Shown here piece by piece: positions 1 through 33,922 of a DNA stretch of 64,000 nt. Under the pieces are notes generated by a model. That model was not told the origin of the DNA. It searched no databases and saw only the letters and a program-made list of their open reading frames with translations. Both the position numbers and the translations under genes were made by a program. Source of the DNA: a virus (lineage: Duplodnaviria > Heunggongvirae > Uroviricota > Caudoviricetes); the IMG/VR virus record IMGVR_UViG_2690316311_000019, one strand, 5' to 3'. Numbering within the stretch: the stretch's first letter is position 1; each line of letters begins with the position of its first letter.

Positions 1-134
1 TTGAGCAGAACTCTGATATTGATAGTGAAGATGTTGCGCAGCGACTGGACGCAGATTTCTTCCTGTTGACCAGTGAAATTTCGTGCCTGGTTGATGCTCT
101 GGTAAATGCCCTTGGCGGAGAGGCTAAGCAGTGA
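1..134 (+). CDS. 3' end of an upstream gene truncated by the window edge (product unknown)
   Basis: Open frame from window start to TGA at 132-134; the stop overlaps the GTG start of the next gene (GTGA). Confidence 0.35.
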
Positions 135-3100
135 AAGAGCTGTGCTATGGATCTGTTTGCAGTGGAATTGAAGCCGCGAGTATTGCCTGGGAACCGTTGG
201 GTATGCGTCCGGCGTGGTTTGCTGAAATCGAGCCTTTTCCATCGGCCGTTCTTGCGCTCCGCTGGCCCCATGTTGCCAACCTTGGCGACATGAAAAAACT
301 TGCCAAAAAAGTCTTGGCTGGGGAAATCGAATCCCCTGACGTGCTCGTCGGGGGAACACCATGTTTTACCGCGGGGCATATGGTTCTTTGTAAAAATGGC
401 TATAAACCAATAGAAAATGTTTGCCCTGGTGATTACGTAGTCAGTCATCTCGGGCGGTTACAACAAGTAAAAAGAGTTGGTTCAAAAATAGCTAATACGG
501 GGTTACTTAATGCCGTTGGGCAGCCTTTAGGTATAAGAACAACCAATGACCATCCCTTCCTGGCTGTTCGGTGGAAAGCCCAAAACACCCGGAAAAATGG
601 CACATATTTTAAGAGAGAGTTGTTGTCTGAACCGGAATGGCGAGCAGCATGTGATATGCCGGGATATCAATGGTGCGCTCTAACTAATTTCAATATTGCA
701 TTTCCAGATATTTGTTCTCGGTTCTTGTCTGAAGAACAGGCTATGTATCTTGCGGGCGCTTATGTTGGCGATGGATATATTAGGAGATGGAGAGGTAAAT
801 CTAAGAAGGCGGTTGTTTTTGGCATAAATTGCCAGAAATTGAGAAAGTTTCATTGCCGCATACCAGAAAACATATTTTCCGTGGCAAGCGAAATCCGAGG
901 GAGCATCAAAGTAACCTTGAATGATACGTGTTATGCCAATTGGCTTAATGAACATTTTGGCGAGTTAAGCCATGCTAAGCGTATCCCTGCATGGGTGATG
1001 TCGCATCCATTGCGTCATGTGTTTTTACAAGGCTATCTTGATACTGATGGGACACCAAGTGGTAAAGCGGGATTTAGAATTAATAGTGTTAGTTCTGCGC
1101 TTGCTTGGGGCGTTGCGGGGTTGTCACAGACTTGTGGTTATGTTTCTTCGGTCAGCTTTATTGAAGTTGAGCCCAAAAAAGTGATCGAGGATCGCGTGGT
1201 AAATCAACGGAATTATTATCAGGTAACAATCTGCCCGCAGAAATTGTCACGTAAATCAAGATTGGCTCATGGAATGCTTTTACGAACAGTCAAAGAGTTT
1301 AAATCGGTAGGCCTAGATACTGTATACAACATAGAAGTCGAAGGTGATCATTCCTATATCCTCAATGGTGCGGTGGTCCATAACTGTCAGGCATTCAGTA
1401 TCGCGGGATTACGTGGTGGGCTTGATGATGAGCGTGGCGCGCTAACTTTAAAGTATGTGGAGTTTGCAAATGCAATTGACGACAAACGGGCTGAGTCATT
1501 TCTCAAACCAGCCGTTATCGTCTGGGAAAATGTCCCAGGAGTCTTGTCATCGGCAGATAACGCCTTCGGATGTTTCCTTGCCGGATTGGCTGGAGAAGAT
1601 GTGCCATTTGAACCAGGTGATCGACCTGAATCAGGAAAAAGCAACGCGTTCTGGCGGTGGGATGGCAAAACCGGTTGCCATGTTCCAAAGTGGCCGCAGT
1701 GTGGTTGTATTTATGGACCGCAGCGAAAAGTGGCCTGGAGAATCCTTGATGCCCAATACTTCGGAGTGGCACAACGACGCCGACGCGTGTTTGTTGTCGC
1801 AAGTGCTCGAACAGATCTCGATCCCGCAACGGTACTTTTTGAGTTCGAAGGCGTGCGCCGGAATATTGCGCCGAGCAGAGGCGAGGGGAAGGAAACTACC
1901 AGATATACTTCAAACATCGCTATCAGAACTTGCGATGATACAAACATAATTGCCATGGCACATGGGCAAGGAGGGGCTGAGATAAAAACCGATAATTCGG
2001 CACCAACTTTGACATGTAACCATGAAGCACCAATTGTATTGCTCGGCGACGGTAGAATGCGCCGTCTTACCCCTGTCGAATGTGAAAGGCTGCAAGGTTT
2101 TCCTGATTGGCATACGTTGATCCCTACGGAAAAGCGTAAAAAAGTTAATTCAGATGAACTGGCATATCTGCACAATCACTATCCAGATTTAAGCGAAGAA
2201 GAGGCCGCAATGCTTGCAGCTGACGGACCGCGTTACAAAGCGATCGGCAATAGTATGGCAATACCAGTAATGCGCTGGATTGGCGATCGGATTACTAAGG
2301 CCGTATGTCGGCAGAAAGAAGGAAGTGAAACAAAAGAGCGAAAAGTTAAACCAGCGGCAGAATTCGAACGGTCCATATTCAAATGGGCTGGTGGAAAATT
2401 TGGTGTTCTGGAACAAATCTTTCGCTATTTGCCAGAAGGGAAGCGCCTGATTGAACCTTTCGTTGGTGGCGGAGCTGTCTTCATGAATGCCGGATACCAG
2501 GAAAATCTGCTAAATGATGTGAATGCTGACCTGATTAACTTTTACAAGACTCTGCAACGCGAGGCGCATTCACTTATCACTCTGGCACATCGTTTCTTCC
2601 AGGACTACAACACACAGGAAGGATACCTGGCAGTACGGAATGCGTTTAACAAACAAGTCTATGATGATTTACATCGCGCAGCGGCGTTTTTGTTCCTGAA
2701 CCGACATTGTTTTAACGGATTGACGCGTTACAACCAGGCCGGTGAGTTCAATGTCGGTTATGGGAAGTATAAAACTCCGTATTTCCCATTACAGGAGATG
2801 GAAGCCTTCCTCGGTGCGGAAGGGCGGTCTGAGTTTGTATGCGGTGATTTTGCAGCGGTGATTGAAGCTGCCGGAGAAGGAGATGTCATCTTTTGCGATC
2901 CGCCGTATGAACCGCTTCCAAATACAGAGGGATTCACGAACTATTCCGGTCATGACTTTAAGTTTGAAGAGCAAAAACGCCTGGTGTCTCTGTTGACGGA
3001 TGCTCATCGTCGAGGTGCAAAGGTTCTCATTACTAACAGTGGCGCGCCAAACATCAGAGAGCTTTATCATGACAGTGGCTTCAGAGTGGAACCTCTTTTT

Positions 3101-3172
3101 GCCAGACGTTCTGTGTCTTGTAAGGGGGACACTCGAGGTGTAGCTCATGACGTTTTGGGTATATTGCTCTAA
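131..3172 (+). CDS. dmt: Bifunctional DNA methyltransferase: N-terminal C5-cytosine MTase domain (interrupted by an intein) fused to C-terminal Dam-like N6-adenine MTase domain
   Basis: C5-MTase motifs (GGTP|[10 protein letters not shown] motif, [23 protein letters not shown]) and Dam motifs ([21 protein letters not shown]); position and architecture match P1 dmt. Confidence 0.88.
362..1384 (+). other. Intein (341 aa) with LAGLIDADG homing endonuclease, inserted between Pro and catalytic Cys of the C5-MTase PC motif
   Basis: Starts CFTAGH (block A), TTNDHPF (block B), two LAGLIDADG motifs ([23 protein letters not shown]), ends VVHN followed by Cys+1; lower GC than flanks. Confidence 0.85.
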
Positions 3173-3179
3173 TAAATTT
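3163..3179 (+). promoter_or_regulatory. C1 repressor operator (ATTGCTCTAATAAATTT) overlapping dmt stop codon
   Basis: Exact match to the P1 C1 operator consensus. Confidence 0.75.
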
Positions 3180-3353
3180 ATTAGTGTAATATCACCTCAA
3201 TGAATCGTGATTTATAGAGCGATTTAGCTGTTAGCCGCGACAGGCGCGGCGGTAAGCATGGCTGGGCCTAGTCCTCCCAGACAAACCACCGAGTTGCCAG
3301 GTTGACCATGCGCCTAAGTGGCAACGCCGAAGTGCGTTACGAGCGTCCAGTTT

Positions 3354-3923: not shown

Positions 3924-4010
3924 AGGGGAGTTAGTCCGTAGGGGTAGCGGGGTAGACTGTAAATCTACTGTCATTGCGACTCGGGTGGTTCGACTCCATC
4001 ACTCCCCACC
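3924..4010 (+). tRNA. Type II tRNA-like gene, anticodon GUA (Tyr-like), long variable arm; D-arm atypical
   Basis: Acceptor GGGGAGT/ACTCCCC, anticodon stem GTAGA/TCTAC with loop CTGTAAA, 15-nt variable arm, T-arm GGTGG-TTCGACT-CCATC, CCA end. Confidence 0.55.
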
Positions 4011-4014
4011 ACAT

Positions 4015-33602: not shown

Positions 33603-33922
33603 GTGTTTTTTAGCTACCGATGTTACATTGAACCTGACCTCTTGCGCCTTGAGGCATTTTCGGTTTATGCTTATCAGGCACCTCATTAAAACGGGTGCCG
33701 GGATTGGCCTCCCGCTTAAGTCTAAGGCGATACAGACGCCGCTCGCGTCTTTTTTTGTATCGGCGTACACGCACACCTCTACAATGGTGGGCTGTATGGG
33801 GCTACCTTCGGGTAGGCTGGTTACCTTGGACGCCAGTAAGGCCAACTCCGTACAGTCCACCGCCAGCAAGATTGGTCTCTTCTGCGGTGGTTACATACCA
33901 ACGTCTAAGGAGGCTGCCAATA

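Follow-up and report, generated by a model that had tools for sequence, protein, structure and literature searches.

A predicted class 1 LAGLIDADG intein at the catalytic cysteine of the Dmt methyltransferase of P1-like plasmid prophages

Introduction

Inteins with a LAGLIDADG homing endonuclease have been described in orphan DNA methyltransferases of actinophages, where they are patchily distributed and have moved between divergent host genes (PMC5050341, PMC9957025). They comprise the DNMT-1/2 inteins of mycobacteriophage N6_N4 methylases (Kelley et al. 2016, PMC5050341) and the actinophage methylase intein of the Dorothy_75 family, which was the subject of a dedicated study (Gosselin et al. 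2023, PMC9957025). Additionally, a 2025 preprint names 'DNA methylase N-6/N-4 and C-5 (IPR001525)' among the actinophage intein hosts, without detail (10.1101/2025.01.02.630785). Here, we analyzed dmt, a DNA methyltransferase gene of P1-like phages, in a 64,000-nucleotide stretch of viral DNA (IMG/VR record IMGVR_UViG_2690316311_000019; hereafter the window, always meant at its full length). We assign a probability of about 0.82 to the reading that positions 362-1384 are a canonical class 1 intein with a nested double-motif LAGLIDADG endonuclease, which would splice to restore Dmt and would home into intein-less dmt genes.

The actinophage methylase inteins differ from this element in their exteins, which are N6/N4 methylases (PF01555), and in their insertion site, which reads MHV/CLARGS…VVKN/CPLQ in gp68 of phage Tootsieroll (slashes mark splice junctions throughout). 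The mycobacteriophage methylase intein is approximately 27% identical to the P1 intein and shares neither its extein family nor its insertion site; the Tootsieroll gp68 intein is an element of a similar kind and a different intein allele.

In structure, the closest matches are PI-SceI (yeast VMA1), PI-PfuI, PI-PkoII (2cw7), and TliVMA. They share with the dmt element a class 1 HINT domain, a nested double-motif LAGLIDADG endonuclease, and the C1, TxxH, HN, and C+1 chemistry, with Foldseek E values from 3.5e-17 to 8.7e-09, yet the sequence identity is 11-17%. The dmt element has 341 amino acids (aa) vs 454-537 aa in this group, resides in another host protein and in a bacteriophage, and has Pro at position -1; due to the smaller size, the extra DNA-recognition region is probably missing. 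Inteins at catalytic motifs of other replication and repair enzymes, such as the P-loop inteins of RecA and DnaB, resemble it in being inserted at catalytically essential residues, in leaving the host protein inactive before splicing, and in having a functional +1 nucleophile. The enzyme and the chemistry are different, as the +1 Cys of dmt is the covalent-catalysis nucleophile of a methyltransferase.

Results

Insertion site and intein-less alleles

The window originates from a P1-like plasmid prophage (Punavirus). Positions 1-3300 are 99% identical to OP279344 ('phage P1'), RCS47 and Ro157c2YLVW cover 94-100%, and the remainder of the window matches P1-like plasmids of the enterohaemorrhagic Escherichia coli type, such as the pO111-type NC_013370. 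The dmt product consists of an N-terminal C5-cytosine methyltransferase, the intein, and a C-terminal Dam-type N6-adenine methyltransferase, and the exteins match PF00145 (C5 methylase, E 9e-30) and PF02086/TIGR00571 (Dam). The intein comprises dmt residues 78 (start of CFTAGH) to 418 (end of VVHN), that is, 1023 nt in frame. It is flanked by GGTP before and CQAFSIAG after, which places the insertion site directly after Pro77 and before the catalytic Cys of motif IV. In the nucleotide sequence, the junctions of the intein-plus allele read …ACACCA/TGTTTT…CATAAC/TGTCAGG….

A preliminary description of this DNA, made from the letters alone, had placed a 341-aa intein at 362-1384 between GGTP and CQAFSIAG, which we reproduced to the base. 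It had also called the segment AT-richer than its exteins, and the GC content is indeed 42.7% in the intein vs 54.5% in the N-extein and 48.3% in the C-extein (48.2% in the whole window). The GC content at third codon positions follows the same pattern (37% vs 52% and 43%, respectively).

The clean 1023-nt insertion that it expected was found in natural alleles without exactly these nucleotides, among them P7 and MH422554. P7 Dam and the Dmt of MH422554 have 672 aa, which equals 1013 minus 341, and the equivalent pair on a background with an 82-aa longer target-recognition region is RCS47 (1095 aa) with the P1 reference (754 aa). Intein-plus and intein-less proteins align with a single gap, which falls between GGTP and CQAFS and spans exactly 341 residues, and the intein-less alleles are otherwise 96-99% identical. 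Two intein-less junction haplotypes were observed, …GGTACGCCT/TGTCAG… and …GGAACACCT/TGTCAG…; with longer flanks, the intein-less haplotypes read …GGGGGTACGCCT/TGTCAGGC…GGGC and …GGGGGAACACCT/TGTCAGGC…GGGA.

The Dmt spliced in silico aligned without gaps to M.HhaI residues 59-125 (AGFPCQAFSISG in the aligned pair), and the +1 Cys was paired with HhaI Cys81. This residue is the catalytic nucleophile of M.HhaI, and the pairing agrees with the earlier claim that the +1 splice nucleophile would be the catalytic Cys of the methyltransferase itself. The possibilities of a group I intron and of a free-standing endonuclease gene were rejected, as the insert is in frame, lacks its own start and stop, and has HINT blocks at both ends.

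Among the dmt alleles, two forms with unrelated target-recognition regions (window approximately 1877-2200) and an 82-aa difference were found; the window and P7 have the short form, RCS47 and the P1 reference the long one. Each form is equally frequent among intein-plus and intein-less alleles, and P1-like phages probably carry two different 5-methylcytosine (m5C) specificities. In the P1 reference AF234172, dmt codon 74 (window 350-352) is TGG, giving VLVWGTPC, vs GGG, giving GGTPC, in the window, P7, RCS47, and 86 of 86 IMG/VR contigs; this Gly-to-Trp change in motif IV may impair the C5 activity of the laboratory strain. The record OP279344 ('phage P1 isolate del res del mod') has the intein and the short target-recognition region, and its dmt flanks are approximately 4% off the P1 reference, so that it does not represent the classical P1 allele here.

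Splicing and endonuclease motifs and predicted fold

The segment has the features of a class 1 intein, namely Cys1, the TxxH of block B, a C-terminal His-Asn, Cys+1, and the HINT fold. The preliminary description had listed block A (CFTAGH), block B (TTNDHPF), two LAGLIDADG motifs, and a terminal VVHN followed by Cys; all are present, and the Pfam and TIGR profiles agree with them (Table 1). The Pfam comparison that it proposed as a check placed LAGLIDADG_3 above the gathering score (34.2 bits vs 22.5) and Hint_2 just below it, and TIGR01443 (intein_Cterm) scored 25.9-28.9 bits against a cutoff of 15.6; the LAGLIDADG_3 and TIGR01443 scores far exceed what chance would give. There were also weak profile matches to intein-bearing ribonucleotide reductase, GyrA, RFC, and DnaB models. 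A single-sequence phmmer search against PDB matched only the C-terminal 42 residues, to the DnaX mini-intein. The family profile matched PI-PkoII, PI-SceI, a bacterial intein-like (BIL) domain, and mini-inteins, and M.HhaI residue 81 fell at the start of the C-extein.

An AlphaFold2 model of the intein was built from 11 homologues. The model has a predicted local distance difference test score (pLDDT) of 90.1 and a predicted template modeling score (pTM) of 0.88, with LAGLIDADG helices at 124-137 and 218-229. Its top Foldseek matches in PDB were PI-SceI (E 3.5e-17), the TliVMA intein, PI-PfuI, and PI-PkoII, and Prp8 inteins were also matched. The central domain matched I-DmoI, I-SceI, and I-OnuI-type enzymes over approximately 180-250 aligned columns, i.e., a pseudo-dimeric alpha-beta-beta-alpha-beta-beta-alpha fold. 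According to the model, the endonuclease would be of the single-chain, two-motif type, with two helices, each ending in a catalytic Asp, in a pseudo-dimeric fold.

BIL domains are HINT domains that have no nested endonuclease, reside at host sites that are not conserved, and usually lack both the HN terminus and the canonical +1 nucleophile. A BIL domain was rejected for the dmt segment, which has an endonuclease domain, an HN/C terminus, and a conserved catalytic insertion site; the BIL structure 2lwy matches the N-terminal HINT part only.

Table 1. Coordinates of the dmt gene, its intein, and the linked flanks in the window
Feature	Position	Strand	Evidence
dmt open reading frame (ORF), GTG start, stop included, 1013-aa precursor	131..3172	+	PF00145, PF02086, TIGR00571; annotated dmt in P1-like records
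N-extein, 77 aa, C5 methyltransferase motifs I-III, ends GGTP (first half of motif IV)	131..361	+	
Upstream flank tract linked to the intein	244..361	+	r2 0.67-1.0 inside, ~0 beyond -130
Intein, class 1, 341 aa (Cys1 … His340-Asn341, then Cys+1)	362..1384	+	Motifs, profiles, intein-less alleles, predicted fold
Intein block A, intein residues 1-13, Cys1 nucleophile	362..400	+	Cys1 in 146/148 family representatives
Intein block B, intein residues 57-69, TxxH = T61-N-D-H64	530..568	+	T in 142/148, H in 147/148 representatives
LAGLIDADG homing endonuclease domain, approximately intein residues 120-290	719..1231	+	LAGLIDADG_3; model helices; Foldseek matches to I-DmoI, I-SceI
LAGLIDADG motif 1 (LAGAYVGDG), intein residues 128-139, catalytic Asp137	743..778	+	D in 135/148 representatives
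LAGLIDADG motif 2 (LQGYLDTDG), intein residues 220-231, catalytic Asp229	1019..1054	+	D in 143/148 representatives
Intein blocks F and G, G = NGAVVHN, end His340-Asn341, then Cys	1319..1384	+	TIGR01443; alignment to Spl DnaX mini-intein C-terminus
+1 Cys codon TGT, splice-junction nucleophile and catalytic cysteine of motif IV (PCQ)	1385..1387	+	Alignment to M.HhaI
Downstream flank tract, partial linkage	1385..1544 (+1 to +160)	+	r2 0.2-0.4 inside, ~0 beyond +170
C-extein part 1, remaining C5 methyltransferase (motifs IV-X, short-form target-recognition region)	1385..2365	+	
C-extein part 2, Dam-family N6-adenine methyltransferase domain, aa 746-1009	2366..3157	+	TIGR00571 249 bits, PF02086

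The P/CQ intein family

The nearest relatives of the dmt intein are all in C5 methyltransferases, at the identical insertion point (Pro / catalytic Cys of motif IV), and share its architecture, with 27-58% sequence identity. In phages, the junctions read GGSP/C…HN/CQDLS in gp50 of Propionibacterium phage B22, GGFP/C…HN/CQAWS in the E. coli jumbo phage A4 (A4_120), SCP/C…HN/CQPFS in gp44 of EBPR siphovirus 2, and SPD/C…HN/CTHFS in gp71 of Pseudomonas phage Lana. The intein of Mannheimia phage 587AP2 has 48% identity to the P1-like intein and a broken extein.

Searched exhaustively, a set of 1.84 billion representative proteins yielded 493 matches at E <=1e-30, and at least 140 protein clusters (50% identity) have a homologous intein at the P/CQ site. 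Conservation was counted in the best 148 clusters at 50% identity, whose representatives are 33-58% identical, with alignment-based mapping of the junctions. Among these 148, Pro-1 was found in 141, Asn341 in 148, Cys+1 in 146, and Gln+2 in 138, and Cys1, T61, His64, Asp137, and Asp229 were kept as listed in Table 1. In a separate family alignment, Asp137 of motif 1 was invariant. As the splicing and catalytic residues are kept across these clusters, P/CQ represents an intein allele that is large and long-lived and has maintained its endonuclease.

Within this family, the window intein is distinguished by its host gene, a C5-Dam fusion, and its copies in E. coli and Salmonella plasmid prophages are >=98.5% identical. 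The hosts of the other P/CQ inteins are unrelated phages and bacteria; these members include degraded ones (Mannheimia) and a mini-intein (in P0019, a protein of 306 aa). In Mannheimia phage vB_MhS_587AP2 (1264-3584), the C5 methylase ORF that holds the intein ends 20 aa past the splice site, and the methylase remainder is a separate overlapping ORF, followed by an HNH endonuclease gene; the host gene is decaying, and its intein looks intact. The P0019 protein harbors a mini-intein of approximately 150 aa without an endonuclease domain at GGTP/C…VHN/CQD, which would be the expected end state of the homing cycle.

Literature searches for papers on an intein in the dmt of P1 or P1-like phages found none and returned unrelated papers only. 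In the sequence databases, including RefSeq, the protein is named 'Dam family site-specific DNA-(adenine-N6)-methyltransferase', and the intein is unannotated. The initial statement that no inteins had been described in phage DNA methyltransferases is contradicted by PMC5050341, PMC9957025, 10.1101/2025.01.02.630785, and the P/CQ homologues in the databases. The C-5 methylase inteins of the 2025 preprint (10.1101/2025.01.02.630785) probably belong to the P/CQ family. The P1-like dmt intein is, therefore, an undescribed member of a large, mostly unannotated intein family and no new kind of element.

The best PHROGs match of the intein, 'anaerobic ribonucleoside reductase large subunit' (PHROG 26446), was set aside as an artefact of an intein-containing family, uninformative on function. 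Several RefSeq mycobacteriophage methylase and helicase genes carry the same name, and the P1 intein matches this PHROG too; the shared intein likely drives the naming.

Frequency and linkage in P1-like populations

The intein DNA was present in 152 of 5426 complete E. coli genomes at >=98.5% identity, and 148 of 153 copies were on plasmids. Using the spliced junction as a query, we found dmt in 493 complete E. coli genomes, 339 with an uninterrupted junction and 152 (approximately 30%) with the intein. The intein was also found in 129 PLSDB plasmids from Escherichia, Salmonella, and Shigella, and in IMG/VR the start of the C-extein was on 86 contigs, 24 with the intein and 62 without.

All 23 full intein copies examined have 1023 nt, no stop codon or frameshift, and both catalytic Asp residues of the LAGLIDADG motifs. 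Among them, 22 codons of the intein are polymorphic, 11 synonymously and 11 non-synonymously, with a ratio of non-synonymous to synonymous polymorphism per site (pN/pS) of approximately 0.28. The nucleotide diversity of the intein (0.005) is threefold lower than that of the same intein-bearing genes more than 170 nt away (0.014-0.018).

The linkage analysis was based on 60 unique flank haplotypes, 45 of them intein-less; L059, L071, and L087 were left out because their flanks were not colinear. Two upstream positions were completely associated with the intein, 340 (-22, C vs T) and 361 (-1, A vs T). The alleles at -118, -104, and -48 had r2 values (squared correlation) of 0.67-0.75 and were absent from all 45 intein-less haplotypes sampled. 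Between -7 and +160, r2 was 0.2-0.4, and it was approximately 0 farther out. The target-recognition variant, which starts 493 nt downstream, had a frequency of 0.53 in intein-plus vs 0.58 in intein-less alleles. The intein-bearing alleles occupy at least seven backgrounds of flank and target-recognition region, and nine changes of intein state were counted on the far-flank tree. No intein-less allele with the intein-linked bases at -22 and -1 occurred among the sampled haplotypes, and hence a recent precise loss is not evident. The low intein diversity, the short decaying flank linkage, and the many backgrounds fit repeated homing with short, variable co-conversion tracts, or intense local recombination.

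Other features of the window

An extra 87-nt tRNA-Tyr (GTA) was found at window positions 3925-4011 between tRNA-Asn and tRNA-Thr, which are 2 nt apart in the P1 reference. Rfam matched isrK at 33678-33755 and a C4 antisense RNA at 33780-33867. We take C4 to be the P1 immunity (immI) antisense RNA, which is expected in a P1-like genome.

Discussion

Based on these results, we propose that the 1013-aa precursor would be translated and that Cys1 would undergo an N-S acyl shift. The thioester would be transferred to Cys+1, the nucleophile of the methyltransferase itself, Asn341 would cyclise, and the 341-aa intein would be released. An S-N shift would then complete a Dmt of 672 aa in which the GGTPCQAFS motif is intact. 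Because the +1 nucleophile is the catalytic Cys and the intein splits motif IV, C5 methylation would require splicing, and the precursor would be without C5 activity; the separate C-terminal Dam domain would probably work without splicing. Owing to its Dam activity at pac sites, dmt is essential to P1 when the host is Dam-minus (PMC12707154). In a cell with two P1-like genomes, the freed intein would cut the intein-less dmt at the insertion site, and the repair of the break would copy the intein and a short stretch of its flanks (homing).

Several observations weigh against this proposal. With regard to splicing, position -1 of the dmt intein is occupied by the Pro that is invariant in the PCQ motif. 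An engineered intein with Pro at this position showed no detectable splicing (PMC13014065), so that efficient splicing of the dmt intein is not to be assumed. Hint_2 scored 28.1-28.2 bits, which is marginal at 0.2 under its gathering score of 28.4, and the Intein_splicing score of Pfam was well under gathering. With regard to homing, an intein frequency of approximately 30% is below fixation. The polymorphisms were 7 non-synonymous to 3 synonymous in the endonuclease domain and 4 to 8 in the splicing domain (small numbers, not significant), and the endonuclease excess could reflect a relaxed constraint on the nuclease. Moreover, the linkage decay could result from ordinary homologous recombination among P1-like plasmids around an older insertion.

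The first group of observations would also suit an insertion domain that never splices and stays in the methyltransferase, such as an additional DNA-binding module, and splicing is here a prediction from sequence. We find this alternative hardly credible. A normal conserved insertion domain without Hint motifs was part of what the preliminary description had named as its refutation, whereas HINT motifs are present, and alleles without exactly this segment are the majority and otherwise nearly identical. Furthermore, the catalytic PCQ motif is interrupted by the segment, no splicing residue is missing and all are conserved across the family, the predicted fold combines HINT and LAGLIDADG, and the polymorphism of the splicing domain is mostly synonymous. 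As for the proline, the P/CQ family would be either adapted to it or a poor splicer; the conserved splicing residues and the mostly synonymous variation of the splicing domain favor adaptation.

The second group of observations bears on whether the intein is splicing-competent with an inactive endonuclease, as late in the homing cycle, kept since Dmt needs splicing, and spread by homologous recombination alone. The intermediate frequency and the replacement excess in the endonuclease domain would be accounted for in this way, and recombination is rampant in dmt, as the target-recognition variant 493 nt away is unlinked. We consider this possible but unlikely, given that both catalytic Asp are intact in 23 of 23 copies with no frameshift or stop and that they are kept in 135-143 of 148 distant relatives. 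The intein diversity is also threefold below that of the surroundings, and flank alleles that are absent from the sampled intein-less haplotypes fade with distance, as co-conversion tracts would. We therefore prefer the splicing and homing intein.

A selfish intein might, in addition, be a post-translational switch, for instance, a redox-sensitive one acting through Cys1, Cys+1, and internal cysteines, that delays or gates C5 methylation relative to Dam during P1 development. The precursor holds a complete Dam domain downstream of the split C5 domain, the intein has Cys10 and Cys21 besides Cys1 and Cys+1, and the site is the catalytic nucleophile. Nevertheless, two thirds of the P1-like dmt alleles function without the intein, and insertion into catalytic motifs is already a general habit of selfish inteins (PMC5050341), which makes a switch very improbable in our view. 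It is likewise improbable that the P/CQ inteins are specialised for a Pro(-1)-Cys(+1) junction while the P1-like copy is both actively homing and a conditional switch gating m5C separately from Dam. If true, the phage would have a timed or redox-dependent methylation program.

The splicing and homing intein leaves the general understanding of inteins unchanged, and it provides a clean case in which the splice nucleophile is the catalytic cysteine of the host enzyme. A large intein family that would natively splice after proline could serve protein engineering. P1 is one of the classical phage models, and resistance genes are commonly found on P1-like plasmid prophages of E. coli and Salmonella. 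As about a third of P1-like dmt genes carry an intein and are labeled 'Dam family methyltransferase' only, their protein sizes and domain calls are misleading. The P1-like dmt gene would also allow intein homing and co-conversion to be measured in a natural population of plasmid-phages, in an E. coli host that is genetically tractable.

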